From positions 135,466-199,465 of the forward strand of contig JAPPFM010000056.1 of assembly GCA_028821605.1 (NCBI GenBank): a DNA stretch of 64,000 nucleotides, read 5' to 3'. Both the position numbers and the translations under genes were made by a program. Below the pieces are notes generated by a model. The model did no database searches. It worked only from the letters and a program-made list of their open reading frames with translations, and was not told where the DNA came from. This stretch comes from Candidatus Poribacteria bacterium (GTDB lineage: Bacteria > Poribacteria > WGA-4E > WGA-3G). The number at the start of each line of letters is the position of its first letter. Positions within the stretch are counted from its first letter, which is position 1. This document shows positions 8,359-58,500 of this stretch, one piece after another.

Positions 8359-8454
8359 GGGATTTTGACAAAATATTTATACATCCGTGCTGATGGAGTT
8401 GTTGAAATTTTCCTGATAATGTGTTACACTTTTATCACGTAGTCTAAGCATCGA

Positions 8455-9099
8455 GTGAAGGAAAAACGTATGTCATCTATTGCAGCCCGAACCTACCTAA
8501 CCCCAGAAGAATATATCGTTGCCGAACGCAAGGCGACACTCAAAAGCGAATATCTGAGCGGCGAGATCGTCGCAATGTCGGGGGCAAGTGATACACATAA
8601 TCTTATCACGATGAATACGTCAAATGCCCTTTACAATCAATTGGCAGACCGAGGATGCAGAGTCTACGCCAGCGATATGCGCGTCGGAATTAGCGCAGGA
8701 GTTTCCTACTTCTATCTGGATATTGCCGTTACTTGTGATAAACCCCGCTTCGAGGATGACGTTTTCGATACACGCATCAATCCACAGGTTATTATTGAAG
8801 TGCTTTCTGATTCAACCTTAGGCTATGATCAAGGCGAAAAATTCATACGCTATCGGCGACTGGAATCACTTCAAGAATACATCCTTATTTCACAAGATCA
8901 GGTTCAAGTCGATCACTATCTCCGTCAAGGCAAACAATGGGTGCTTACTGAATTCAGCGCACTTGAGGATGTGTTACGGCTTGTTTCAATTGGTGCAGAA
9001 CTCCCCTTGCATCAGGTTTACAGATTCATCGATCTGGAAACCGATGATGCCCTTCAAACCACCCATACCGTCTCAAAAAGGGACTCTATTTCATGCTGA
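8455..9099 (+). CDS. Uma2 family (DUF820) putative restriction-endonuclease-like protein
   Basis: Uma2 hallmarks: YLTPEEYIVAERKA...SEYLSGEIVAMSGASDTHN, CRVYASDMRV, YFYLDIAV, PQVIIEVLSDST. Confidence 0.75.
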   Translation: MKEKRMSSIAARTYLTPEEYIVAERKATLKSEYLSGEIVAMSGASDTHNLITMNTSNALYNQLADRGCRVYASDMRVGISAGVSYFYLDIAVTCDKPRFEDDVFDTRINPQVIIEVLSDSTLGYDQGEKFIRYRRLESLQEYILISQDQVQVDHYLRQGKQWVLTEFSALEDVLRLVSIGAELPLHQVYRFIDLETDDALQTTHTVSKRDSISC

Positions 9100-11141
9100 C
9101 CCTTGAGCAACTCGTCACTTGTGGATTGGAAAAAGCAGAGGCGTTGCAGATAACCGAAGCCGTCAATCGGATATTGCCAACACAGTCCCCAACAGCCTGC
9201 TGGTACGAAATTTCGCGCTACATCCTCACGCCACAACACCCGTTTGCCCTGCACCAATTGCTTTATGAAACAGTATACGCCGACTTTGATCGTACGACAC
9301 ACGGTCCTCCACCTGCATGGTTTCCTACAGATGAAGACATCACCGAAGCAAATATAACGCGTCTAATGGCGGAATTACACATCAAAACCTACCCTGAGTT
9401 TCATGCCTGGTCAATTGCCAATCGTGACACGTTTTGGCAGATGATGATCGACACATTGGGGATCAAAGCAGCAGGCGTATATCCGAAGGCACAACGAGAC
9501 GCAACGGGTATCGCAACAAAACTTGCGAAGCTCAACATCGTCGAAAGCTGCTTTAAGGCACCTAACGATGCCATCGCGATTGTTGCCCAACGCGAAAACG
9601 ACGAAAGGCTGCAAACGCTCACCTATCAGGAACTGGAATCTCTCACAAATCGGGTTGCAAACGGACTTGTTGAAATCGGTATGGAGCAAGGCGACGCTAT
9701 AGCAATTGACATGCCGATGACTGCTGAATCTGTCGCTGTCTATTTGGGGATTGTCAAAGCAGGATGTGTTGTTGTTGGTATTGCCGATAGTTTTGCACCG
9801 GATGAGATAGCTACCCGTCTCCGTATTGGCAATGCAAAAGCAATCTTCACACAGGATTATATCAACAGAGCAAGTAAACGTCTCCCGTTGTATGAAAAGG
9901 TTATCGCTGCAAATGCCCCGAAAGCGATTGTTTTTTCTTCTGAAGGCGGTGACACTGTTGCGCGACCTCAACGTGAAGACGATATGACGTGGGGCGACTT
10001 CCTTAGTGACATGGAGACCTTCACTGCTGTTCCGTGCCATCCTGATGCACATACCAATATCCTTTTCTCCTCCGGCACCACTGGCGAACCGAAGGCGATT
10101 CCGTGGACACATACCACACCGATTAAAACCGCCGTAGATGCCTACCTACACCACGACATTCACCCCGGCGATGTGCTGGCATGGTACACAAATCTCGGTT
10201 GGATGATGGGACCTTGGCTCATCTACGCCAGTTTCATCAACAAAGCCACTATCGCCTTATATGATGGCGTGCCAACTGGGCGTGGCTTCGGTGTTTTTGT
10301 CCAAAATGCGGAGGTCAGCATGCTCGGTGTCGTGCCTACCCTTGTCCGCGCATGGAAGAATACAGGGTGTATGCACGGGCTGGACTGGCGTGCGATTCGA
10401 GCGTTCAGTTCGACGGGTGAATGCTCTAATCCGGAGGAGATGCTTTTCCTCATGTCCCTCGCTGACTATAAGCCGGTGATTGAATACTGTGGTGGCACCG
10501 AAATCGGAGGCGGTTATATCACTGGCACACGCGTCCAACCCGCTGCACCTTCTATGTTCACAACGCCAGCACTCGGTGTGGATTTCCTACTCTTTGATGG
10601 GAACGGGAAACCGACAGAAAACGGCGAAGTTTTCATCATCCCACCCTCGCTCGGTCTCTCTACGAGTTTGCTCAACGCTGACCACAATGAAGTCTATTTT
10701 GCAGGAACGCCGCAACCCAATCTACGCCGCCACGGCGATGCGATTGAGCGGTTAGGCAATGGCTTTGAAACCGAACCTTGGCTTGCGGGGATTAAATATC
10801 GCGTTCACGGTCGGGTTGACGATACGATGAACCTGAGCGGTATTAAGGTAAGTTCGGCAGAGATTGAAGAGGTGCTTAACGTCGTCAGTGAGGTACAGGA
10901 GACAGCAGCGGTCGCTGTCTCACCGAAAGATGGCGGTCCGAGTCAACTCGTCATCTACGCCGTGCTGACAGTATCAGAAACAGCACCCACAAAACAAGAA
11001 CTTCACACGACGTTGCAAACCGCGCTTTCCGCCCATCTCAACCCGTTATTCAGAATTCACGAGGTCGTTATCGTAAACGCATTACCGCGAACCGCTTCTA
11101 ATAAAATTATGCGTCGTCTTTTGCGCCAGCAAGCGATGTGA
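9093..11141 (+). CDS. AMP-binding acyl-CoA synthetase (acetyl-/acetoacetyl-CoA synthetase-like)
   Basis: AMP-binding signature LFSSGTTGEPKAIPWTH, an N-terminal ACS/AACS-like region (ANITRLMAELHIKTYPEFHAWSIANRDTFWQ) and a C-terminal SNKIMRRLL. The ATG overlaps the upstream Uma2 stop by 7 bp. Confidence 0.8.
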   Translation: MLTLEQLVTCGLEKAEALQITEAVNRILPTQSPTACWYEISRYILTPQHPFALHQLLYETVYADFDRTTHGPPPAWFPTDEDITEANITRLMAELHIKTYPEFHAWSIANRDTFWQMMIDTLGIKAAGVYPKAQRDATGIATKLAKLNIVESCFKAPNDAIAIVAQRENDERLQTLTYQELESLTNRVANGLVEIGMEQGDAIAIDMPMTAESVAVYLGIVKAGCVVVGIADSFAPDEIATRLRIGNAKAIFTQDYINRASKRLPLYEKVIAANAPKAIVFSSEGGDTVARPQREDDMTWGDFLSDMETFTAVPCHPDAHTNILFSSGTTGEPKAIPWTHTTPIKTAVDAYLHHDIHPGDVLAWYTNLGWMMGPWLIYASFINKATIALYDGVPTGRGFGVFVQNAEVSMLGVVPTLVRAWKNTGCMHGLDWRAIRAFSSTGECSNPEEMLFLMSLADYKPVIEYCGGTEIGGGYITGTRVQPAAPSMFTTPALGVDFLLFDGNGKPTENGEVFIIPPSLGLSTSLLNADHNEVYFAGTPQPNLRRHGDAIERLGNGFETEPWLAGIKYRVHGRVDDTMNLSGIKVSSAEIEEVLNVVSEVQETAAVAVSPKDGGPSQLVIYAVLTVSETAPTKQELHTTLQTALSAHLNPLFRIHEVVIVNALPRTASNKIMRRLLRQQAM

Positions 11142-11248
11142 CCTTTGCAAAAAGATTGACTTATGCAATTTTTTTAGGTATACTTAACAGATACCCGAGT
11201 GACATACACTTGTTTTTTCTATCACTTTGTGGAAAAGGAGATGTTCTG

Positions 11249-11992
11249 ATGGAAACGCACCCCAATGCACGCCACATCCCTTACGCTCCCACAGAAACTG
11301 CCGACCTATACCCTGAATCGGATGGAAAACCTATGGCTGAGACGGATATGCACGCAGTGGCTATCATCGATTTACGGCAACGTTTTGACGGCTTCTTCGC
11401 GGATAACCCGGATACTTATGTATCGGGGACTCTCATGATGTATGATATAGAGGGCCCCAGCCGCACAGCCGTCTCACCCGATATCCTCGTCTCTTTCGGC
11501 ATAGGCAAGAAACTCCGCCGCACCTATAAGGTGTGGGAAGAGGGAAAGCCGCCAGACTTCGTGATGGAGTTTTCGAGCAAAGGAACGTTTCAAAATGACT
11601 TAGGGCATAAAAAGGCACATTACGCGTCAATGGGAATACCGGAGTATTTTCTCTGCGATATAGATAGACGCTATCTGCCCACGCCGCTGATGGGGTTTCG
11701 CCTCAAAGGTGAGACTTATGAGCGGATACCCGAGAACGTAGATGGTAGTATTCCTTCTGTGACGTTAGGCGTATCGTTCCATCTGTTGGATGAGGGGTTA
11801 GCCGTTTATGCGGAAGCGATGGAACACTGGCTGCAAACGCCTGCAGAGGCAGCAGAGGCAGCAGAGCAGCGTGCGGAACAAGAAGCCGCCGCACACGCGC
11901 GTGAAGCCGCCGCACGCGCCGAAGCGGAAGCGGAAGTCTCGCGCCTGCGCGAGGAGCTCGAGCATCTCAAAGCGCGCTTGTCAGATGACTAA
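11249..11992 (+). CDS. Uma2 family (DUF820) protein with C-terminal Ala/Glu-rich coiled-coil tail
   Basis: Starts METHPNARHIPYAPTETADLYPESDGKPMAETDMH with SD aaggag 7 nt upstream; the track ORF start at 11138 lacks an RBS. The C-terminal tail is AEAAEAAEQRAEQEAAAHAREAAARAEAEAEVSRLREELEHLKARL. Confidence 0.75.
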   Translation: METHPNARHIPYAPTETADLYPESDGKPMAETDMHAVAIIDLRQRFDGFFADNPDTYVSGTLMMYDIEGPSRTAVSPDILVSFGIGKKLRRTYKVWEEGKPPDFVMEFSSKGTFQNDLGHKKAHYASMGIPEYFLCDIDRRYLPTPLMGFRLKGETYERIPENVDGSIPSVTLGVSFHLLDEGLAVYAEAMEHWLQTPAEAAEAAEQRAEQEAAAHAREAAARAEAEAEVSRLREELEHLKARLSDD

Positions 11993-13386: not shown

Positions 13387-14139
13387 ATGGGTATCACCGA
13401 CGCGCAAAAGAAGCAATTGGACGAACAGGGGTGCATCGTCATTCCAGACGTGCTTTCCGACGAGGAGATTGAGGTCTATAGAGCCGATATTCTCAGGTTG
13501 GCAGAAGAGGAGAAGCAGAACGGGTTGGCGCGTCAACATACCGACGGGCGTGGACAGCATGTCCGTTGGTTGGTGAACAAGGGACAGATGTATGAGAAAC
13601 TCGTTGCCAGACCCAAAGTGATGCCCTTCTTTGAGCACCTCCTTGGTCCCGATTATACGTTGAGCACGCTTACCTCGAACATTATTGATCCGGGCGCACC
13701 AGATGGTGGCTACCACGTTGATAGCGTGTTAGGGTCTATGCCGGAGCCGCTGCCCAGTTTCCCACTGGTCGCCAACAGCCTCTGGCTGCTCGACGATTTC
13801 ACACCGGAGAACGGTGGTACACGTCACGTCCCCGGTATCCATCTTCAGCGAATTAAACCGCCCCCAGGCACGACGCACCACCCCGATGAGGTCCGACTCT
13901 CTGCCCCGAAAGGTTCCGTATTCCTGTTCAACGGTGCGATCTGGCATTCTGCGGGTGCCAACAAAACTGATCGGCAGCGCATCGCGTTGATCTGTTTCTG
14001 TTGCCGTTCTTTTATCAAACCGATGTTTGACTTCGTGCATCATCTCAACCCGGAAGTCGTCGAGCGCGCCACCCCAACCATGCGCCGAATCTACGGGTTT
14101 GATTCCCAACCTCAACCCCCAGATCAACCCACGCGGTAA
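13387..14139 (+). CDS. phytanoyl-CoA dioxygenase (PhyH) family Fe(II)/2-oxoglutarate oxygenase
   Basis: Facial-triad context GGYHVDS ... AIWHSAGAN, with an arginine in KTDRQRIAL. Confidence 0.75.
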   Translation: MGITDAQKKQLDEQGCIVIPDVLSDEEIEVYRADILRLAEEEKQNGLARQHTDGRGQHVRWLVNKGQMYEKLVARPKVMPFFEHLLGPDYTLSTLTSNIIDPGAPDGGYHVDSVLGSMPEPLPSFPLVANSLWLLDDFTPENGGTRHVPGIHLQRIKPPPGTTHHPDEVRLSAPKGSVFLFNGAIWHSAGANKTDRQRIALICFCCRSFIKPMFDFVHHLNPEVVERATPTMRRIYGFDSQPQPPDQPTR

Positions 14140-14186
14140 TTACATTTCACTGACGGGGTTTCTTAACTTCTCCTTTCATGATGGAT

Positions 14187-14212
14187 GCCCTCTTCGTTGG
14201 CGAGGGTTTTGG
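14187..14212 (+). terminator. weak intrinsic terminator (gccctc-ttcgttggc-gagggtttt)
   Basis: 5-6-bp stem, 9-nt loop, then TTTT, 48 nt after the PhyH stop. Confidence 0.35.
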
Positions 14213-14513
14213 AAGAACTCACACGCGGTTCTTCCTAACCTCGCAAATAAAACTGTACCCTTAACCGTAAATCTCACGTTATAACTTAAAGCGCATGCTT
14301 TAGCAATTTCTGACCTTTATGCAATAACCTATAAAAGGTCGTTATCTGATACCATTTTTAATTGAATACCTTTCAATGTGCATGTAGCATAAACTTTTAG
14401 TTTGTGCCACCCTATTTCCTTTCAGAAAAGTTGTTCATGCGATATTTATTTTCAGAAATGGTATGAGAACTGAATAATCGCTTCCTAAAAGGAGAACAAG
14501 AGGAGATTCTATT

Positions 14514-14939
14514 ATGACTATGATAACCGTTCAGTGGCAGAGATGTCTCAAGAACTCTCTTTGGTGTCAATTCAATGAAAAACTCTTGAGCAATGGTCGT
14601 TTTGAGACCCGTCTCGGTGACCATAGTGTCAATATTAGCGGCATCTATATCATCTGGACAGGGATTGACAACCGCACGGTACTTAAAGTCGGAAGCGGAA
14701 TTATTAAGGATAAATTGGAAGAACATCTCAGAGATCCTGAAATTCAAGCCTATAAACCTACACGATTATACGCTACGTGGGCTTCTACTCTATCTGTAAT
14801 TGGAGCAGAAGAGATCCAAAAAGGCGTAGAGAAGTTTCTTGATATTGTATTTAAACCGAAATTGGTAGAACACTTACCTGATGTTGATCTTGTAATGGTC
14901 AACCTACCTCGGTGGAATAAACCGGTGCCCCCACTGTGA
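14514..14939 (+). CDS. GIY-YIG nuclease-domain small protein (UPF0213/YhbQ-like core with 40-aa N-terminal extension)
   Basis: Motifs SGIYIIW...VLKVGSG.IKDKLEEH follow the GIY-YIG consensus. A good SD gaggag lies 9 nt upstream. The antisense ORF 14412..14747 was rejected. Confidence 0.45.
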   Translation: MTMITVQWQRCLKNSLWCQFNEKLLSNGRFETRLGDHSVNISGIYIIWTGIDNRTVLKVGSGIIKDKLEEHLRDPEIQAYKPTRLYATWASTLSVIGAEEIQKGVEKFLDIVFKPKLVEHLPDVDLVMVNLPRWNKPVPPL

Positions 14940-15178
14940 GAAGTCCAACTATAGTGGATTTCAAAATTGATGAAACACGCCACAGCGGGCGAGGGAATCT
15001 TGCCCCTACGAGAGGTGGTCTCCGCGCAACCCTGACATAGGAGATTGCCTGCTGTGTTTCTAACCTCACCTAATTCCGAAAACCGGTAATTGTCCTTTCC
15101 TCATACAAGAGCAGGCTCCAACTCGCGATCATGGAACCAACAGAAACCCGCATGGCTCTGGCTATGTCTTGTTTTTAC

Positions 15179-15208
15179 TTGCCTTCATCAGAATTGGCAT
15201 GCTATACT
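15179..15208 (+). promoter_or_regulatory. sigma70-like promoter candidate (TTGCCT-18 nt-TATACT) upstream of the RM-fusion gene
   Basis: The hexamers are read directly from the sequence, 59 nt upstream of the ATG at 15267. Confidence 0.3.
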
Positions 15209-15266
15209 GATGCCATATCCACGTCCTTTTTTAATGACCCAAGCCTAAATATTTACAGAAAATATC

Positions 15267-18224
15267 ATGCCAAACCGACGCGAAACAACAATCACAAATG
15301 AATTGGTGAACATCTTACGAAACATGCGCCACGGATGGGAGCTCGAAACGGAAGTCAACGCTTTCATCCGAGGCAATAGCGAACTTGATGCCATTGTCAT
15401 TGAACACGGTAGAGAACCCGTCGGGATTGAAGCAAAATTCGCAACCACCACCAATGCCAGAAATTTGATTGAACAGGCAGAAACAAGGCTTGTTCTGGAA
15501 CTTGAAACGGAATATCATGTCGTTGGAAAAACGCTCAATAACGTCATGGCAATCCTGTACCCTGACCGTTTTAAGACGATGCAGGGAAAGGATATCAACC
15601 CACACCTACGCGCTGCGGATGACCTACAATACAAACTCGTCAATACAGTCGGTAATACCGTAGGACACTTCCCAGAAAATGGATGGGCGGAAGGCACTGT
15701 AGGCGACATCGCAAACGCGCTCCACGTTGGCGCAATGCCGACCTCTCAACTTGAAGAGGCAGCGGAAGAGATGGAGAAAAGTATCAACAAGGCAGCTTAC
15801 CTTCTTGAAGATGCTATCGTTGATCATCCTGCCATCGCCAAGAAAATTGAGACGATTCTGCACCAAGAGGTTTCCTCTAAAACGGAAGATAACACAGAAG
15901 AAAAACCGAATGTCCAGACACTCCGCATGGCAGCATTGATTATCACCGATGCTTTTGTCTTCCAAAGTTCCCTTGCCGGTAAAGCAGAGATGGAATCTGT
16001 TCGCTCACTCCGACAACTCCTACCGATAATTGATTATGCTGATGTTATTGAGGACTGGAACACGATTCTCAAGGTTAATTATCGCCCAATCTTTGAGGAT
16101 GCCCGAAACCTCGTTGAGGCACTCGCTACGGATGACAGACTTGTCAAATATATCTTAAAACTCCTCTGTGAGGCTGCAAAAGACCTTGTTGATACCGGTA
16201 TTGCCCAGATTCACGAACTCGCGGGTATTGTGTTCCAAAAACTCATCACCGACAGGAAATACGTCAAGGCGAACTATACGCTTCCCGAAAGCGCGGTGCT
16301 GCTCTCCACCCTTGTGATGCCTGAACTGCCGAAGGGTAAACTCCCGAAAGTGGCAGACTTCGCTTGCGGAACAGGGGCACTCCTCAACGGTGTCTATCAA
16401 CGTATTCTGTCTCTGTATGAGCAATCGGGCGGCAACGGTAAAGACATCCATCAGCGAATGTTAGAGAAGCACATCGGTGGTGTAGATATTATGCCGAATG
16501 CGACACACCTCACCGCTGCTGCGCTTGCGAGTACGTATGCAGGTGTCAAAATCGGCGGCACGCAAATAGTTACTGCCCCTTACGGTGTAATCGATACTGG
16601 CGGCTACGCGATCGGCTCATTGGAATTGCTTGATGATATAAAACTATTTGACACAGAGGCAGAGCAGATAGGCGGTGAGGAAAATACCGTCGTTAAACTC
16701 CAACAGACATTCCAACACGGTGATATTGATATTGTCATACAAAATCCTCCCTTCACAAGGCCGGGATCGGATAGCAATACCGAGGTGCCAAAATCTACTT
16801 TCCAAGGCAGTGATCGACCCAAAGAAGATCAGAAGTTGATGCAGGCCACGCTGAAATCTAAAAATACAAGAGTAACTGATGGCGCTAACGGCTTCGTTTC
16901 TGCTTTCGTAGACCTTGCTGACAAAAAACTGAGGAACGGTGGTACAATGGGTTTCATTTTGCCACTGACAGTGTTGAGATCTCCGACTACGCAAGAACTG
17001 CGCGATATGTGGGCAAACGAATACCACAACGTAGTCGTGATAACCATGGCGCAGGCAAAAGCAGAAGACTGCACATTCTCTGCAGACACAACTATGGCAG
17101 AATGTATCATTGTCGCAACGAAAGGCATAGATGAAAACACTGGACGTGGGAAGTTTATCTGTCTTGCTGATAAACCACATAGTTCTCTTGAATCCGTTGA
17201 AATAGCAAATCGGGTTAATAGAAGCGACGAAGCACGAAGACTTGAAGATGCCCCTAACGGCGGTGATACTATTAACGTTGGAAACACAAATAACGGTCTA
17301 ATGTTGGATTGCCCAATCAAAGAAGGTGTTCCGTGGATCGCAACACGAGCAAGATCCGTGGCATTACTACAGATGGCAAACAAGCTGACAATTGGGAAAC
17401 TGCACTTTCCGATGTCAAGAGAGACTTTACCGATTCACATTTGCCAAGTACAAGATATTGCAAAGGTGGGTTCAGCAGATTCTTATCGGGAAAAAGATGG
17501 CCCGTTTATTATGGTTGAGGATTATGAGCCAAATAGTGATGGTTATGACGCATTGTGGAGAGTTGATGCTCCTTTACAGCGTGCTATGATTGCCGCACCG
17601 GATTCTACTGCGATACCACGTTCAAATGACAATGCTATGGTCAAGCGGATTTTAGACTGTTTCAGCAGAACTCACTATCATATTAATCTGAGATTTACCT
17701 CAAATTCGATTATTTCTTCCTTGACAGAAAAGCCCTCCATCGGTGTACGTTCAATGATTAACGTTTTACTCAATGACCAGCGTCACGAAATTGCTTGGAC
17801 GGTGTGGTGCAACTCAAGTTTAGGTTTGTTTTGTCACTGGGCACACAGCAGTAAACAACAGATGGGACGTGGCACCCTACGTCAACAAACATTAGAGACA
17901 CTGCCTACGCTGGATGTCCGTCAACTCTCCGATGAGGCGTTAGCAAACGCTGAAAAGGTGTTTGAACGGTTGAAATATAAACGTATGCTGCCTTTCAATG
18001 AGTGCGATCATGACCCCGTACGCAAAGAATTAGACTGCTGTCTACTAACAGAGGTGTTGGGAATTACGAGCGATAACGTGCTTGAATCCATGCAGACACT
18101 CCGCGAGATGCTCTGTGCTGAACCGAGTATTCACGGTGGGAAACAGTCTAAGTGCGACCTTGATACCGAGTTGGCGATGCTTAAGAAGAAGCGGATTGCT
18201 TTTCCGAGTTGGTATGTTGATTAA
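15267..18224 (+). CDS. MmeI-like single-chain restriction-modification enzyme candidate (Type IIG/IIL): N-terminal PD-ExK nuclease, gamma-class N6-adenine MTase, C-terminal TRD
   Basis: Order of motifs: D41...E55-A-K57 (ELDAIVIEHGREPVGIEAKF), then MTase motif I DFACGTGALL, motif IV NPPF, and GGTMGFILP, followed by about 380 aa of presumed target-recognition domain. The 985-aa length and domain order match MmeI-family enzymes. Confidence 0.65.
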   Translation: MPNRRETTITNELVNILRNMRHGWELETEVNAFIRGNSELDAIVIEHGREPVGIEAKFATTTNARNLIEQAETRLVLELETEYHVVGKTLNNVMAILYPDRFKTMQGKDINPHLRAADDLQYKLVNTVGNTVGHFPENGWAEGTVGDIANALHVGAMPTSQLEEAAEEMEKSINKAAYLLEDAIVDHPAIAKKIETILHQEVSSKTEDNTEEKPNVQTLRMAALIITDAFVFQSSLAGKAEMESVRSLRQLLPIIDYADVIEDWNTILKVNYRPIFEDARNLVEALATDDRLVKYILKLLCEAAKDLVDTGIAQIHELAGIVFQKLITDRKYVKANYTLPESAVLLSTLVMPELPKGKLPKVADFACGTGALLNGVYQRILSLYEQSGGNGKDIHQRMLEKHIGGVDIMPNATHLTAAALASTYAGVKIGGTQIVTAPYGVIDTGGYAIGSLELLDDIKLFDTEAEQIGGEENTVVKLQQTFQHGDIDIVIQNPPFTRPGSDSNTEVPKSTFQGSDRPKEDQKLMQATLKSKNTRVTDGANGFVSAFVDLADKKLRNGGTMGFILPLTVLRSPTTQELRDMWANEYHNVVVITMAQAKAEDCTFSADTTMAECIIVATKGIDENTGRGKFICLADKPHSSLESVEIANRVNRSDEARRLEDAPNGGDTINVGNTNNGLMLDCPIKEGVPWIATRARSVALLQMANKLTIGKLHFPMSRETLPIHICQVQDIAKVGSADSYREKDGPFIMVEDYEPNSDGYDALWRVDAPLQRAMIAAPDSTAIPRSNDNAMVKRILDCFSRTHYHINLRFTSNSIISSLTEKPSIGVRSMINVLLNDQRHEIAWTVWCNSSLGLFCHWAHSSKQQMGRGTLRQQTLETLPTLDVRQLSDEALANAEKVFERLKYKRMLPFNECDHDPVRKELDCCLLTEVLGITSDNVLESMQTLREMLCAEPSIHGGKQSKCDLDTELAMLKKKRIAFPSWYVD

Positions 18225-18260
18225 TTTAAACTACCTGCAGGAAATCCGGAGAAATAAATT

Positions 18261-19067
18261 ATGCCAAACAAACGGTATCAAGAATTACTATTCTCATCTC
18301 AGAAAAAACTGGATATTTCTGCTGAGCAGATCAGAAAATTAATCCCTACCTCAGGTGAAATAGGTACACTAATTGAAGAAATGTTCAGGTCCTATCTGGC
18401 AGAAGTATTACCTGAAAAAATAGGGATATCAAACGGATTTGTAATGGATTCGGAAGGTGGCGAATCAAGGCAAATGGATATTATCCTATATGATAAAATG
18501 AACACACCTCGCATATTTACCAGTACCGCTGCTCAAGTTTTCCCAGTTGAATCTACATTCGCTTGTGGTGAAATTAAGACTCAACTCAATGCAAGAGAAC
18601 TAAAAGATAGTTTTGAAAAATGCTTAAGTTACAAGAATCTACATCGAAAAGCTTATTTTGATCAAAATGATAGCGATATAAAGTACTTCCATAAATTGTT
18701 CGGAGAAGAAAAAGAACATTGGGAATCAATTTTTTTCACTATTTCTGTTGAGTGTATGACTGGTAGTGGTCTGTTGATGGAATACCAACGTATTATTGAG
18801 GCAGAAAGCCTACCTCTTCATAAGAGAATAGATACAATTTTTTCATTATATAGCACCGATGGGAATAACATAATAGCAAATTGTAGTGAAGAAGGACTCG
18901 ATTTTCTTCCTAATAAGAATGGTCAGTTTCGTGCTATATCAGTGGAAAAATCCTGGGCATTGTTTATCAATCTGTTATTGAGATACATGGTTAACGTACC
19001 CGCGGAACCTATTAATATGATTAAATATGCTGGGAGATCCCTTAGTGATTACGGAATTATAAATTAA
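18261..19067 (+). CDS. AT-rich orphan hypothetical protein with PD-(D/E)xK-like core (QMDIILYD ... ACGEIK)
   Basis: About 35% GC and A/T-ending codons, against about 50% for the window. The putative catalytic strands are D-hydrophobic (MDIILYD) and E-x-K (GEIKTQ). No family could be assigned by eye. Confidence 0.4.
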   Translation: MPNKRYQELLFSSQKKLDISAEQIRKLIPTSGEIGTLIEEMFRSYLAEVLPEKIGISNGFVMDSEGGESRQMDIILYDKMNTPRIFTSTAAQVFPVESTFACGEIKTQLNARELKDSFEKCLSYKNLHRKAYFDQNDSDIKYFHKLFGEEKEHWESIFFTISVECMTGSGLLMEYQRIIEAESLPLHKRIDTIFSLYSTDGNNIIANCSEEGLDFLPNKNGQFRAISVEKSWALFINLLLRYMVNVPAEPINMIKYAGRSLSDYGIIN

Positions 19068-19119
19068 GATTCTGGATCCAGTATATTCTGATCATACTTA
19101 CTATTTTGGAGAGATTGAC

Positions 19120-19518
19120 ATGCAAATTGAAGATTATTTTAACTTTTTGGCAGAAGATGATATTCGCATTAAAGGCACACGTATAGGCATAGAATCTGTC
19201 CTAGACGAGTATATTAACTACAAACAAACAGCAGAGACAATTGCTGAACGTTTTCATACGGTTACACTGGAACAGGTTTATGCTACAATCCTATATTATC
19301 TGCAAAATAAAGAAAAAGTTGGTGCGTATTTGGAGGATTATCTGGAATATTGCCGAAAAGCTCGAGAAGAGCAGGAGAAAAATCCTTCTCCTGGTGTTAT
19401 TCGCCTGCGTGAACTTATAGCAGAAAGGCGAAAAACTTCTGATAATTCACGCCCGGATATCTCGAAAAACAGTTCCGAAAGCACAACACCATCTCCATCC
19501 AAATATGAACGGGAATAA
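19120..19518 (+). CDS. DUF433 domain protein (antitoxin-like partner of DUF5615)
   Basis: IRIKGTRIGIESVLDEY...ERFHTVTLEQVYATILYY matches the DUF433 pattern (GTRI.V..VL....EEI...YP.LT.E.V.AAL.YY). Confidence 0.6.
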   Translation: MQIEDYFNFLAEDDIRIKGTRIGIESVLDEYINYKQTAETIAERFHTVTLEQVYATILYYLQNKEKVGAYLEDYLEYCRKAREEQEKNPSPGVIRLRELIAERRKTSDNSRPDISKNSSESTTPSPSKYERE

Positions 19519-19520
19519 AG

Positions 19521-19880
19521 ATGCGTCGGTATCTGTTGGACGAACATATTCCGCCAATCTACCGCACGCAATTGCTTTATCATGAATCCTCACTAACGGT
19601 CTTGGAGATTGGCGATCAAGGCGTACCTGCAAGAGGAACATCCGACCCGGAAATCCTGCGCTGGTGTGAGCAGAACGACTTCAGTTTGATAACAAACAAT
19701 CGGAAAAGTATGCCCCAACATCTCGCTGACCATCTATCAGCAGGACATCATATACCAGGCATTTTCACGATTAATCTCAATGCGTCAATAGGATTGATAA
19801 TTGAACAATTGATTCTCATTGCTGGAGCATCCGATGAAGATGAATATATTGACCAAATCGTCTTCATCCCACTTAGATGA
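19521..19880 (+). CDS. DUF5615 (Mut7-C/PIN-like) putative toxin
   Basis: LLDEHIPPI...SDPEILRWCEQNDFSLITNN matches the DUF5615 consensus. The start lies 3 nt after the DUF433 stop, so the two form a classic coupled pair. Confidence 0.6.
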   Translation: MRRYLLDEHIPPIYRTQLLYHESSLTVLEIGDQGVPARGTSDPEILRWCEQNDFSLITNNRKSMPQHLADHLSAGHHIPGIFTINLNASIGLIIEQLILIAGASDEDEYIDQIVFIPLR

Positions 19881-19904
19881 GGAAAAGGATGGAAATCTCC
19901 AAAG

Positions 19905-20693
19905 TTAGTTTCGTTCGATCATTGACTGCTTGAGTGAACCCCACGTTACCGCCAGTTTTCCAATAGGTTCAACCGCCAACGCCAGTGTATGCAATCGCCT
20001 CACGTCGGCATCACTTAACGCCCCCTCAAAAATGGCAACTTCGTCAATAGCACCGGCGTACCAGATACCGCCCAAGTGCTGTGTGTAGGCGATTGTCGGC
20101 TTGTGGGCGGCACCGTAAGCGATACTGATTGGATCGGGTGCCGGAGTCGTCTTTTTTAGTTCACCGTCCAGGTAGATACGGACAGATTTTTTGCTCTCAA
20201 CAACTCCAACAACATGATGCCACTCGCCATCGGCGGGGAACGGCACATAAGCGGAGGGCCAATGCTTTGCCGCGTTTGCTGTGTCCGCACGAATCCAGAT
20301 GCCAACACTATTGTTATCAAGCAGTTGGATGCCGTAGTTGTATTTGTCATAGATCGGATTTCGTGTGCCAAGGGTCGGCTTAATAATCGCCTCCATCGTC
20401 ACAGAAGGGAAGAAGAGGTCCTCACCCATTCGTATCAAATCAACAGCACCGTCAAAATCAAGGGCTTCACTGCGAAACCCATCTATTTGGTTGGGTTTGC
20501 CTGTAATGGTTCCGCCGTTCTTTCCGAAAACATCTTTAACGTCTTTGCCTTGAACGGTGTTTTTGTCAAGGGTCCAAAGTGCCGCAAGCCCCATTTTGAC
20601 TCTTGGATCCTCGGCTACTGCGGATTGAATCACCGTGATAGAAATCACGAAACCGACTAAAAGCAGAGCGGAGAGAGACAATTTCGTTTTCAT
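19905..20693 (-). CDS. secreted LamG/concanavalin-A-like jelly-roll domain protein
   Basis: Signal peptide MKTKLSLSALLLVGFVISITVIQSAVA. LamG-type core (ALDFDGAVDLI...; WHHVVGVVESKKSVRIYLDGEL). Paralog of the next gene. Confidence 0.65.
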   Translation of the reverse strand: MKTKLSLSALLLVGFVISITVIQSAVAEDPRVKMGLAALWTLDKNTVQGKDVKDVFGKNGGTITGKPNQIDGFRSEALDFDGAVDLIRMGEDLFFPSVTMEAIIKPTLGTRNPIYDKYNYGIQLLDNNSVGIWIRADTANAAKHWPSAYVPFPADGEWHHVVGVVESKKSVRIYLDGELKKTTPAPDPISIAYGAAHKPTIAYTQHLGGIWYAGAIDEVAIFEGALSDADVRRLHTLALAVEPIGKLAVTWGSLKQSMIERN

Positions 20694-28777: not shown

Positions 28778-29272
28778 TGCCGATTGGTTACGTCTCGGTC
28801 GTGGGTGTTGTTCACACATTCCCTTTCCCTTTCTATCTCTTTCTTTCCCTTCTTACCGCCCAAATCGCTGAATATAGCAATTTTTTGCGTTTTATCCTAA
28901 ATAGGACTTACGCAGTCTGCTCATTTGTAGCACAAACTTTCCAGTTTGTGTCAGAAAAATGTGTGTTTTTAGGAAAGTTCCGATCTCACAGGACGTGCTA
29001 TGACTACAATCGCGTAAGTTCTGCTAAATTTACACTTACTCACAGTAAAGGGACTTGCAGAGAGTTCTCCGTTTTCTAAAGCCCATGCCGTAAACTCTTA
29101 AATCAAGTTCACGTTAATATTAGCACTTGAGAAAGTAAAGCAAAATAAAACATACTATAGTTGGTTTTCGTTGTCTGATGAAAAATATCAAATAGAAAGC
29201 CAGAAATTAGCAAAACTGAGATGCCTACCGAAAATACGGTCAGAAGTGGGGCTAAAATGGGGGATTCTTAAA

Positions 29273-55595: not shown

Positions 55596-58500
55596 TTGAT
55601 GGTGAAAATCGGCAAATACCTCCCTATAGTGATCCTAATATGCGTCGGATTAGCGTTTGCAACAGCAGATGCCCAAGAAAACCTTGCACAACAGGTGTCC
55701 GCTATTTTTCAGCAAAACTGCTTGAATTGTCATGGACCCTCCGGTTCCTTTAAGGAAGCACTCCTGCTTGACCGCACCGCGCTTATTGATACGCAGGTCA
55801 TCATCCCAGGAAACCCAGAAAACTCAGAATTCTATAAACGACTCCTTGGACCGACTGAGAAGGGTCCGCAAATGCCGCTCAATCTACCACCGCTCTCACC
55901 AGAAGCCATTGAAACGATTGCCCGTTGGATTACCGCAGGCGCGCCAGATTGGGATGTGCAGCACGACATCAATTTCATAACCACAGATACAATACTCAAT
56001 ACCATCCGAAACCATCTAAAGTCGCTGGATCCGTTTGATCGTCCCTCCGCACGCTATTTTACAATGACGCATCTCTATAATGCCGGTGAAAGCCCTGAAA
56101 CTCTCAGCGACTATCGGATCGCGCTCTCTAAACTGATAAATAGCCTCTCGTGGAAGTTTGAGATCACGAATCCAACACCTATTGATGAAGCACAAACAAT
56201 CTTCCATATTGACCTACGGCGTTACGAATGGAATAATATCAGAACCGATGTGTGGACACAAATTGAGCAAGTATATCCGTACAACATTGTGTTTGATCCA
56301 GAAACACAAGCCGGTCTCCTTGAAAAACTGACACACCTGCAGACTGAAATGGGCAGCACAGTGCCGTTTGTCCATGTCGATTGGTTTCTTACGACCGCGT
56401 CGTTGCCACCACTCTATCACGACATTTTAGGTCTTCCACAAACAGACCGTGTGTTAGAGGCACAACTGGAGGTAAATGTTGCGAGCAATATCAGGAACGC
56501 CCCGGGGATAAATGTCTGGCGTGCGGGTTTCAACGATTCGGGTGTCTCCTCAAACAACCGCGTTGTGGAACGCCATACGTCTCGGTATGGTGCGTATTGG
56601 AAAAGTTACGACTTTGCTGGGAGCGTAGGTTCACAGAATATCTTTACGCACCCACTTGATTTCACACACGATGGTGGCGAAATTATCTTCAATCTCCCCA
56701 ACGGATTGCAGGCGTACTTGCTGGTTGACGTTAATGGTAACCGGCTGAACGACGCACCAATTGACATCGTTAGGAACCTTGCTGCGAGCAATCCGACAGT
56801 CCGGAACGGTCTCTCGTGTATTGGGTGCCATACGCAAGGCATGAAGAAGTTTGAAGATAGTGTGCGAGTGGCGATTGAACAAGATGACAACCCGCCGTAT
56901 AACAAAGAACAGGCACTACGCCTCTACGCTAAACAGTCAGTGCTTGATAATCTGGTTGCAAAAGATACACTAAGGTTTCAGCAGGCATTGGAAAAGATTG
57001 GCGGTCCGTTTGCGGATGATGCATCCAGACAACGCTTCTTCAAGCAACATGAAAATGAACCCATCCAACGGTTTCATGAATCGTTTCAATCACCCCTAAA
57101 TGCCTCGGACGCTGCTGCCGCTGTTGGATTGGAAACAGAAGCATTCCTCACACAGATCCGTGAGAAACAGAGTTTAAAAAACTTAGGACTACAAACGCTC
57201 ATAGATGTGAAGGGCACCGTGAAACGGGATGCATGGACATCTAACTTTGACGATGTAATTTCTGCGTTGAATACCCCTGATAGCATCCTTCCGCCAGTCG
57301 TGCAGCGTCCAGAACGCATTCCGGGTGCTGGTGTATACATTCCCGACCCGAACCTCCGCGCGGCAATTGCCGAAGCACTCGGCAAAGCACCTGGTGATCC
57401 GATTACGGTAGAAGATATGGCGATGTTGGCTGATCTGGACGCAAGGAATTATGATGAGCCGCGCAAGGAAAATATTAACAATTTAACGGGACTTGAGTTC
57501 GCAGTGAATCTCAAATTTCTACATATTGGTGGTAATTCAGTATCAGATTTATCGCCCCTTGCGGGGCTAATAAAACTAGATTTCTTAGATGTCCAGGATA
57601 ACTTAATATCAGATATATTGCCGCTTAAAGGATTGACTCGTCTAAAAGATTTAGTTCTTACTGATAACGTGATATCTGATTTTTCTCCCCTTATGGAGTT
57701 AACAACATTAAAAGAGGTATGGATTTCTGACAGCCCGGCATTTGACCTGTCACTACTTGGAAGATTGATTAACCTTGAGGGTGTGCATGCTTGGGATGTC
57801 CCCATAAAAGATCTATCCCCTCTTGCAGGATTGACAAAATTGAGATGGTTAGACTTTGGTCGTATTCCAATATCAGATCTTGCACCGTTAGCGAACCTAA
57901 CAAACCTGAGAAAACTGATATTTTACGATTGCGGCATAGAAGATATCTCGTCTCTGGCAGGATTGAAAGAGTTGAGATCTCTTATAATTCCTCACAACGC
58001 GATCTCAGATCTCTCGCCGTTGGCGGGGTTAACTCGTTTAGAAACTTTACATATCGTCAATAACCAAATATCAGATGTATCGCCCTTGGCAGGGTTAACC
58101 AACTTAGGCGAACTAAACCTCCGCAACAACTCAATAACAGATTTCTCACCTTTAGAGGCACTTTCCCAAAATACAAATATACTTACTGGTGAAGTGGCTA
58201 TACCCGATCTAAACCTCCGCGATGCAATTGCAGAGGCACTCGGTAAAGGTGATACTACAGTTGTTTCAATTACCGCTGAGGAAATGGCTACATTGACAAG
58301 TCTTGTTGTCAATGACAGAGGTATTCAAGATTTGATAGGACTTGAGTTTGCTATAAATTTGGAAAACCTATGGTTTGAACACAATCAGGTATCTGACCTA
58401 TCTTCTATCGCTAAATTAACCAAACTGCGCGAGTTACGGTTTGTAAGCAATCAGGTATCTGACCTATCCTCTATTGCTAAATTAACCAAACTGCGCGAGT

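Follow-up and report, generated by a model that had tools for sequence, protein, structure and literature searches.

The stretch of DNA analysed here (hereafter "the window": 64,000 nucleotides (nt), contig JAPPFM010000056.1, positions 135,466 to 199,465) comes from a metagenome-assembled genome of Candidatus Poribacteria, a sponge symbiont, and carries an islet of five genes, all on the + strand, that we call A (14514-14939), B (15267-18224), C (18261-19067), D (19120-19518) and E (19521-19880). This islet is probably one case of a Poribacteria-specific defence hot-spot anchored on gene B, which resembles a type IIG restriction-modification (RM) enzyme; C would be a second defence layer, D and E a toxin-antitoxin (TA) pair, and A a separate module. 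The five co-directional open reading frames (ORFs) reported in a preliminary description of this DNA were all recovered from the ORF list, with products of 141, 985, 268, 132 and 119 amino acids (aa), and the many full-length homologues of each show that all five are real genes. The features on which the argument rests are the following:

13387-14139, + strand, PhyH-family dioxygenase, left flank in chromosomal frame 1 (Pfam PhyH; conserved housekeeping neighbour)
14514-14939, + strand, gene A, predicted GIY-YIG-fold protein of 141 aa, independent module (structure prediction)
15267-18224, + strand, gene B, type IIG-like single chain of 985 aa with predicted nuclease, N6-adenine methylase and target-recognition half (AlphaFold2 (AF2), Foldseek, PF07669)
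15267-15671, + strand, predicted PD-(D/E)xK nuclease domain of B, residues 1-135 (AF2 topology, invariant residues)
16617-18116, + strand, allelic target-recognition region of B, residues ~451-950 (drop in nucleotide identity between copies)
18108-18224, + strand, R, the last ~117 nt of B, from codons CAEPSIHGGK... to the stop, recurring between stacked cassettes elsewhere
18225-18260, + strand, B-C spacer of 36 nt with GGAG before the start of C, conserved wherever C follows B
18261-19067, + strand, gene C, predicted DUF6602/NucC-superfamily endonuclease of 268 aa, slot cargo in this strain (PF20247, E=7e-23)
19120-19518, + strand, gene D, DUF433 (COG2442) antitoxin-type DNA-binding protein of 132 aa (PF04255, E=1.5e-6)
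19521-19880, + strand, gene E, DUF5615, candidate Mut7-C-like PIN toxin of 119 aa (PF18480, E=6e-7)
19881-19904, no strand, 24-nt spacer GGAAAAGGATGGAAATCTCCAAAG, forming the conserved right edge of the frame-1 slot (motif comparison across loci)
19905-20693, - strand, secreted LamG-type protein, right flank (Pfam Laminin_G_3), convergent, syntenic in frame-1 loci

The variable slot behind gene B

The comparison set comprised 59 loci (numbered L001 onwards) from a scan of species-representative genomes, with 50 full-length Poribacteria copies of B, and the ORFs of these loci were clustered. B has many close homologues (74-100% identity, ~985 aa), nearly all of them from Poribacteria. They occupy at least six chromosomal frames and always stand against the left flank, 15-200 nt away from it; their left neighbours are metabolic genes (PhyH, alcohol dehydrogenase/ATP-sulfurylase, amidohydrolase, O-methyltransferase and radical-SAM), and several genomes hold two copies of B in different frames. 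On the other side, the DNA 3' of the 50 copies consists of 0-6 kb of variable defence or TA genes, after which comes either DUF433/DUF5615 or the right flank.

The cargo of this slot is diverse. Among the genes found there are an oligonucleotide cyclase of the anti-phage signalling system based on cyclic oligonucleotides (CBASS) with a 207-aa partner (PADLOC, E=1e-124), a long prokaryotic Argonaute (pAgo) with a 78-aa partner (E=7e-258) and a PD-Lambda-4_A-like protein of 1269 aa (E=2e-25), as well as AriA/PtuA-like AAA_21 ATPases, an LmuA-like gene, PIN-TPR-GreABC proteins with DUF433 followed by DUF5615, pairs of an IrrE peptidase and a helix-turn-helix (HTH) protein, ParE-like pairs and a YhgA/Rpn-like gene. 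Gene C lies directly 3' of B in five genome-scan loci spread over three frames, and in five loci (L005, L013, L030, L039 and L053) the slot is empty, B being followed at once by the right flank. In frame 1, where the PhyH left flank is 92-98% identical across ~25 syntenic loci, the 24-nt motif before the LamG stop comes directly after the stop codon of B in L005, which has no cargo, and directly after that of E in the window, L001 and L003; C, D and E thus fill exactly the interval from the B stop to this motif.

Two other occupants of the slot deserve mention. The commonest gene directly 3' of B, which we call c11, is unannotated, encodes ~277 aa with a hydrophobic Gly/Ala-rich N-terminal segment, and has no match in Pfam, PADLOC, NCBIfam or the PDB profile search; examples standing directly after B are L020:10032-10865, L035:6208-7005, L041:10022-10861, L051:10079-10855 and L058:10048-10920. 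A TnpB/Cas12f-like gene (L036:10637-11872, PADLOC Cas12f E=5e-62) is possibly a transposon passenger.

A variable slot set among ordinary metabolic flanks is what the neighbourhood comparison found, which supports a hot-spot and bears out the earlier suggestion of mosaic origin, with an RM gene and a TA pair separated by the insertion of C. The preliminary description was also right that no single named system is present, as the islet resolves into four independent modules (A, B, C and D/E). Its treatment of the five genes as one unit has to be given up: A is separate, lies upstream, and is found in only some of the loci.

Base composition is that of a mosaic as well, as had been claimed from the low GC content of C. 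With 34.8% GC (28.3% at third codon positions) against 48.0% for the window, C is the lowest-GC gene of the whole stretch. Over segments of 807 nt, the GC fraction averages 0.480 (standard deviation 0.035) and reaches its minimum, 0.344, inside C; values below 0.36 occur in five of the 632 segments, all five within the islet, and D (38% GC) and A (42% GC) are likewise low.

Gene B and its recognition half

B has the architecture of a type IIG enzyme, with predicted nuclease, methylase and recognition parts. Its AlphaFold model, computed from an alignment of 67 family members, has a mean predicted local distance difference test score (pLDDT) of 90.3 and a predicted template-modelling score (pTM) of 0.92, and the best match of this model among PDB structures in Foldseek is the type IIG enzyme BpuSI (3s1s), over the full length (E=3e-18). 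Further matches are CamA (template-modelling (TM) score on the target, TMt, 0.65), PglX of the bacteriophage exclusion system BREX (TM score on the query, TMq, up to 0.48) and DrdV. In the model, residues 1-135 adopt the alpha-beta-beta-beta-alpha-beta topology of PD-(D/E)xK nucleases, with E6 in helix 1, D41 opening strand 2, and E55 and K57 in strand 3; these four residues are invariant in 50/50 Poribacteria copies of B, and so are the motifs DFACGTG (364-370) and NPPF (493-496). The order of parts is the one found in BpuSI and in the type IIL enzymes MmeI and DrdV, that is, an N-terminal PD-(D/E)xK domain, a helical linker, a gamma-class N6-adenine methylase and a C-terminal recognition region; within the methylase, motif I precedes NPPF/Y in type IIG enzymes and B alike.

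At the level of sequence, by contrast, the likeness of B to type IIG enzymes is limited to the methylase motifs. Pfam recognises PF07669 (Eco57I-type methylase) alone, over residues 402-594 (E=1e-8); the defence libraries give weak PglX, type IIG and MAD2 matches, all within the methylase motifs; the REase_MTase_IIG models of PADLOC match 60-270 methylase residues only (E=2e-7 to 0.02, the best of them over 60 residues); and a PDB profile search also retrieves the methylase region only, DrdV coming 35th in Foldseek at a TM score of ~0.35. We found no full-length sequence similarity of B to MmeI-family or curated IIG models. The gene had been described as an MmeI-like fusion of nuclease and methyltransferase: the fusion and the MmeI-type architecture hold, whereas membership of the MmeI family is not detectable by sequence. 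B also differs from these enzymes at its C terminus, which bears a conserved EPS(I/V)HGGK motif and has a tail specific to Poribacteria.

The other system that has to be considered is BREX, since PglX/BrxX is the best PDB sequence match of B (E~1e-5 at motif I) and aligns with it over the whole length (TMq 0.42-0.48). Unlike in BREX loci, neither the islet of the window nor the annotated cargo contains brxA/B/C, pglZ or brxL, and B has an intact nuclease motif; the NCBIfam BREX models give 23 bits on B against a cut-off of 500.

B belongs to a large family. In an exhaustive search, the threshold E<=1e-3 gave 2770 cluster representatives and the stricter E<=1e-30 gave 688; most of them align end to end, with lengths of ~950-1000 aa and identities of 30-35%, and all of them are labelled "hypothetical". 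In other bacteria, relatives of ~30% identity stand alone amid housekeeping genes, as is expected of a self-contained enzyme; no relative of B was found on viral contigs in our scan. Distant members of the family, at 23-34% identity, are found on plasmids: L069:6980-9895 on the Sulfuricystis plasmid pSTJ1, L070:6854-9697 on pUSP4 of Aminobacter and L068:8001-10934 on a Nitrosospira plasmid. In another bacterium from a sponge metagenome, a gene combining GIY-YIG and DUF4268 (L075:5709-6704) lies upstream of, and divergent from, a B-family gene of 33% identity; this layout may recall the adjacency of A and B, and may equally be a coincidence.

B is a mosaic, with a recognition half that is exchanged between a 5' half and a 3' end which are both conserved. 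Pairwise nucleotide identity between copies is 85-97% over the first ~1350 nt, falls to 51-70% between nt ~1350 and ~2850 (residues ~450-950) and rises again to 81-93% over the last 150-300 nt. The variable part, through which the structural matches to BpuSI, CamA and PglX run, falls into at least 15 allele classes among the 50 copies (80% threshold), and paralogues within one genome carry different classes. Read from the alignments, this pattern is the known signature of target-recognition-domain (TRD) substitution, already documented in type IIG genes (PMC2853133). The allelic recognition half suggests that the specificity of B is under diversifying selection, which fits defence better than a housekeeping methylase. 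Chromosome OZ242325.1 offers a side view of the same gene: locus L033 (3557-14430) holds two tandem copies of B and, upstream of them, a 134-176-nt remnant of a B end. The tandem copies are 99-100% identical over ~1050 nt, 51-71% in the variable part and 95% at the end, and a YhgA/Rpn-like (Transposase_31) gene on the minus strand follows each copy or remnant.

Gene C, the 3' end of B and competing readings

C is predicted to be a catalytically competent NucC-superfamily nuclease with a regulatory half of its own. PADLOC recognises it with its PD_DExK model (2e-35) and with its NucC effector model (1e-26), and a profile of 39 family members retrieves the Serratia, Vibrio, Pseudomonas and E. 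coli NucC structures from the PDB (E=4e-22 to 8e-15). The match is limited to residues ~2-132 (Serratia NucC, E=4e-22 over 12-132), without gaps and with coinciding numbering, so that the IDx30EAK motif of NucC corresponds to D73, E104 and K106 of C (M72-D73...E104-I-K106), invariant in all 39 members; NucC and C thus share Pfam DUF6602, the nuclease core over 2-131 and the motif at the same positions. Thus, the preliminary description, for which C was an orphan PD-(D/E)xK gene, was right about the type of nuclease and wrong in leaving it unclassified. Plasmid-borne DUF6602 proteins, which are accompanied by a nucleotidyltransferase or an abortive-infection (Abi) protein, match C only up to residue ~148 (184 in one case). 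At 46-57% identity, the relatives of C stand singly amid housekeeping genes, with neither a methylase nor a cyclase near; a scan of JGI metagenomes added five loci only, all distant, and none was found on viral contigs in our scan.

From these data we propose the following working scheme. The recognition half of B would read a DNA motif, and B would methylate host adenines and cut unmethylated incoming DNA. C would be read through from the B promoter (candidate site at 15179-15208), with a ribosome-binding site of its own; no terminator-like site was found between B and C. As a DNA endonuclease of little specificity, kept inactive by its clade-specific regulatory half until triggered, it would form a second layer independent of B, and D/E would stabilise the island or add a layer of abortive infection. 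Cassettes would be exchanged by recombination, with B, and chiefly its conserved 3' end, serving as the left homology or docking site. As for the trigger of C, we infer that it is not cyclic tri-adenylate (cA3) from an adjacent cyclase; it is quite possibly, if short of probably, a small molecule or another signal made elsewhere in the cell, and a self-sufficient restriction nuclease (type IV or type II-like), needing no such signal, is a more doubtful option. C itself is treated here as an independent cassette, which would have been joined once to a B 3' end and then spread with it, because ~45 of the 50 copies of B lack C, because L009 pairs C with another recognition allele, and because the relatives at 46-57% identity are solitary.

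Several observations weigh against this scheme and have to be kept in mind. Position 57 of B, Lys in all Poribacteria copies, is Glu in 52 of the 67 sequences of the wider family, and the closest compact structural match of B (TMt 0.65) is CamA, an orphan methylase. The distant plasmid relatives sit on conjugative-transfer or mobilisation plasmids, beside type IV secretion, PRTRC or zincin-like (ArdC-type) genes, and might be self-protective methylases. In the clade of C with at least 68% identity, all nine placed loci have C after B with a spacer of 36-39 nt. The window contains no extra copy of the B 3' end, so that the copies described below bear on the hot-spot generally and not on the arrival of C, D and E in the window. 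Finally, promoter and terminator scans of the window gave the same counts as shuffled sequences, so that co-transcription and an operon structure are only inferred.

The first alternative concerns C. It could be a true NucC-type effector, in which a trimer bound to a cyclic oligonucleotide assembles into a hexamer that shreds DNA, the ligand coming in trans from the cyclase of a CBASS or from a type III CRISPR system. The residue-for-residue alignment over 2-131, IDx30EAK included, speaks for such a mechanism, and CBASS cyclases do circulate in the same hot-spot in other strains. The allosteric site speaks against it. In NucC, Arg53 and Thr226 contact the phosphate, Tyr81 stacks on the adenine, and His136 and Tyr141 latch the gate loop, all of them being essential (bioRxiv 10.1101/694703). 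The C family has Lys at position 53, a conservative replacement of Arg, and Asn at position 81, where the essential Tyr is thus lost across the family; the cA3-binding set (Arg53, Tyr81, Thr226/Val227) is not kept. The region of Thr226 is reached only by a co-linear tail alignment that is not significant, in which the family consensus is Thr and the window protein has Ala. No significant alignment passes residue ~131, whether by the NucC profiles, by the PDB profile search or by hhalign against a canonical 241-aa cyclase-linked NucC-type protein, so that the gate-loop latch (His136/Tyr141) and the whole C-terminal half are unalignable. By tblastn, the 64-kb window has no homologue of a CD-NTase (the CBASS cyclase), of Cas10, of pAgo or of the other cargo genes, except for the DUF433 domain, and none of the 14 relatives of C that were examined has a cyclase or Cas10 beside it; C and its relatives are solitary or follow B, unlike NucC in CBASS or type III CRISPR loci. 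We thus regard a genuine NucC-type effector as unlikely.

The second alternative concerns how the slot is filled, and it starts from the 3' end of B. By blastn, alignment and nhmmer, the last 62-176 nt of B turned up nine further times, in 8 of ~55 loci. Seven of the nine copies measure 104-134 nt; every copy has the orientation of B and terminates where the stop codon of B would stand, and most of them start at the codons of the family-wide CAEPSIHGG motif. They lie distal to cassettes; the array of L055, for example, is cut by them into three blocks (IrrE-HTH-ATPase, c11-c11 and PIN-DUF433). When the 300 nt beyond each copy are compared, they group by cassette, and the same left ends occur after an intact B elsewhere. 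Cassettes would thus travel or accumulate as units of a B end plus cargo, the newer ones nearest to B.

Known processes resemble this arrangement in part. Insertion of RM genes with long target duplication, described by Nobusato, Furuta and Kobayashi, involves no mobility genes and leaves direct repeats of the target, tens to more than 100 bp long (PMC2853133); similarly, the cassettes of the B slot have no recombinase of their own and are flanked by direct repeats of the target, with the difference that the repeated target is here the coding 3' end of a multi-copy defence gene. As in integrons, cassettes stack beside a fixed site, mostly in one orientation, and are separated by copies of a common site; unlike in integrons, neither an integrase nor an attC-like hairpin was found at the B slot, and the repeats are present in 8 of ~55 loci only. 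Indeed, the scanned clusters of cargo and flank genes contain no recombinase domain, and the B 3' end (18070-18265, folded as DNA) has no unusual secondary structure, its z-score of 0.02 against shuffles leaving no room for an attC-like hairpin.

The B 3' end could then be a dedicated docking site, at which defence genes are captured as in an integron without integron integrase or attC, each capture leaving a ~120-nt copy of the B end. Promoter-less cassettes would be captured just past the B stop, stacked in order of arrival and expressed from the B promoter; gene and array would have spread as one platform to at least six chromosomal sites, and capture might need the anchor enzyme B itself or some recombinase. 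We hold such a dedicated site to be rather improbable and keep to recombination through B, chiefly its 3' end, as the preferred reading.

The third alternative, that B and C form one functional system, takes up the constant spacing noted above. C would be a restriction nuclease whose sites are protected by B methylation, or a nuclease held latent on B until a phage anti-restriction protein disables B; the PrrC anticodon nuclease, held by the type I enzyme EcoprrI, is the model for the latent version. In all nine loci placed (L001, L009, L010, L025, L056 and L082-L085), which span three or more chromosomal frames, the clade of C with at least 68% identity keeps a constant junction of 36-39 nt with B, which leaves a partnership some probability. 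Four of the five genome-scan loci with C also share one TRD allele class, which accounts for 11 of the 50 copies overall; the nearest structural relatives of NucC are type II restriction enzymes (bioRxiv 10.1101/694703); and the BREX protein PglX, to which B is structurally related, is known to be targeted by Ocr (entries 8q56 and 8zek). Other observations speak against it. B does not need C, since ~45 of its 50 copies have none, seven copies of the same TRD class included; in L009, C is joined to another TRD allele without having diverged further than the remaining copies of C; the relatives of C at 46-57% identity have no methylase near; and the association with one TRD class is what physical linkage alone would yield. 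A single B-C system is therefore improbable in our view. B and C both begin with MPN(R/K)R, and the 22 nt around the two starts (15259-15280 and 18253-18274, ribosome-binding region and start codon) are 77% identical, which may be chance or a junction scar.

More improbable still is an orphan, vertically inherited adenine methylase B (a CamA-like epigenetic regulator) beside an ordinary variable region: the 85-97% identity of the N-terminal half across species, the strong structural match to CamA, the name "hypothetical" of all members at NCBI and the distant relatives on conjugative plasmids, where self-methylation would help, can be cited for it, and against it stand the invariance of E6/D41/E55/K57 in 50 copies, the full-length match to a type IIG nuclease-methylase, the at least 15 TRD alleles, which differ between paralogues of one genome in the pattern of a specificity arms race, the two or more copies per genome at no fewer than six sites with unrelated metabolic flanks, which show that B is not simply inherited vertically, and the same variable cargo after B at every site.

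With the defence hot-spot anchored on B as the preferred reading, part of what is described here is of kinds already known: NucC-like nucleases and DUF433-PIN pairs have precedents, and so do islands of defence genes and the shuffling of domains in type IIG enzymes. A defence island is usually recognised by the core genes beside it or by an integrase; in the present case it is a defence gene that stays constant and takes the variable slot along to several chromosomal sites. What is new is a widespread uncharacterised nuclease-methylase family, the Poribacteria branch of which is the portable anchor of a defence slot, the limits between cassettes being marked by copies of the anchor's 3' end; our literature search found no earlier description of this family or of the hot-spot. 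If the 3' end is indeed the capture site, it would give an easy criterion by which to look for new defence genes in the uncultivated symbionts of sponges, as c11, the cluster c13 and the 1269-aa PD-Lambda-4-like protein are frequent occupants of the slot without assigned function, and it could be a new, integrase-free route of cassette exchange. The anchor would also offer a natural series of recognition alleles for an uncharacterised nuclease-methylase family of ~700 clusters. The second novelty, judged from alignments, is a clade of nucleases with a NucC core, minus the adenine-stacking residue and without a cyclase partner. To our knowledge, the NucC-like nuclease core is known only as a cA3-gated effector, and C is a test case for such a core working without either of the two.

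Genes A, D and E and the surroundings of the islet

At the sequence level, A has no match in Pfam, PADLOC, NCBIfam, PHROGs or PDB sequences and has 117 conserved homologues. Structure prediction agrees at the fold level with the GIY-YIG assignment made in the preliminary description. The catalytic set is atypical: Y45 is invariant, K58 stands for the second Tyr and K65 for Arg, and Glu106, which may bind the metal, is replaced by Val in 4 of 33 family members. Compared with GIY-YIG nucleases (R.Eco29kI, the N-terminal domain of UvrC, T4 EndoII, I-TevI), A is missed by PF01541, has Lys in place of the second Tyr and of the Arg, and possesses an additional N-terminal W-x2-C...W-C segment. Within the scanned loci, A stands between PhyH and B in just seven; in two loci, A is kept and B is cut down to a stump of 44-68 codons. 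Since A is found in only some loci, and at the same site without B in L072, it does not co-vary with B or C, a point that the preliminary description had suggested checking. The frame-1 locus L072 (5219-7535) consists of PhyH, a 62%-identical A homologue and LamG, with neither B nor cargo, and is the nearest to an empty site of the B island. Another relative of A, 47% identical (L071), has a T5orf172 gene next to it within a phage-like region. We considered A as a part of a B/C module and rejected it, given A without B in L072 and most copies of B without A.

The reading of D and E as a DUF433/DUF5615 pair is confirmed by both scores, which exceed the Pfam gathering thresholds, with 2 nt between the genes. 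The two domains recur together in ~20 loci at varying distances. COG2442 has been predicted to act as the antitoxin to PIN toxins (PMC2701414), and the partners of DUF433 include Mut7-C-like PIN groups (COG4634/PIN_10), as in VapBC45; DUF433-PIN pairs have previously been linked to RM loci (PMC5499597). D/E resemble such pairs (M. tuberculosis VapBC45) in having the antitoxin first, a 2-nt gap and the same domain pair, with a predicted toxin. Sister loci differ from VapBC45: in them, DUF433 is fused C-terminally to PIN-TPR-GreABC proteins of 530-1440 aa, which precede the same DUF5615 gene. This suggests that D/E are a minimal form of a larger conflict system. Two of these sister loci (L024:10121-14449 and L029:10405-12003) show the large TPR and PIN proteins with C-terminal DUF433, followed by the DUF5615 gene as in the window.

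Three further features lie between PhyH and B:

14140-14513, no strand, non-coding gap 5' of A, 374 nt, GC 37%
14940-15266, no strand, A-B gap, 327 nt, upstream of B in A-containing loci and conserved (alignment with L005 and L060)
15179-15208, + strand, candidate promoter-like site TTGCCT-18-TATACT with TG (consensus scan; count no higher than in shuffles)

Both non-coding stretches, which were said to bracket the islet, do exist; the second one separates A from B and so does not enclose the five genes. The first would be part of the insertion of A between PhyH and B, since B begins 15 nt past the PhyH stop in loci without A. On the other side, the convergent gene said to follow the islet is the LamG-type gene, which ends at 19905, 24 nt beyond E. 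Between 13900 and 20100, a search for direct and inverted repeats gave only short matches at chance level; neither the islet nor C was found to be enclosed by terminal repeats. A tRNA-type attachment (att) site was ruled out, as the 64-kb window has no tRNA gene and no match to any Rfam family.

Elsewhere in the window, a conserved syntenic block upstream of the islet (~8400-11900; L001:3189-6726) consists of an AMP-dependent ligase gene between two Uma2-family (PD-(D/E)xK) genes. A single isolated 807-nt segment near 28801 dips below 40% GC, and the only other extended stretch below this value is the repeat region 58100-59600 of a secreted protein of 1963 aa (55596-61487, + strand), with more than 12 leucine-rich repeats and cohesin, dockerin and type IX secretion-tail domains, which looks like a typical eukaryote-like protein of sponge symbionts and not like a defence gene.

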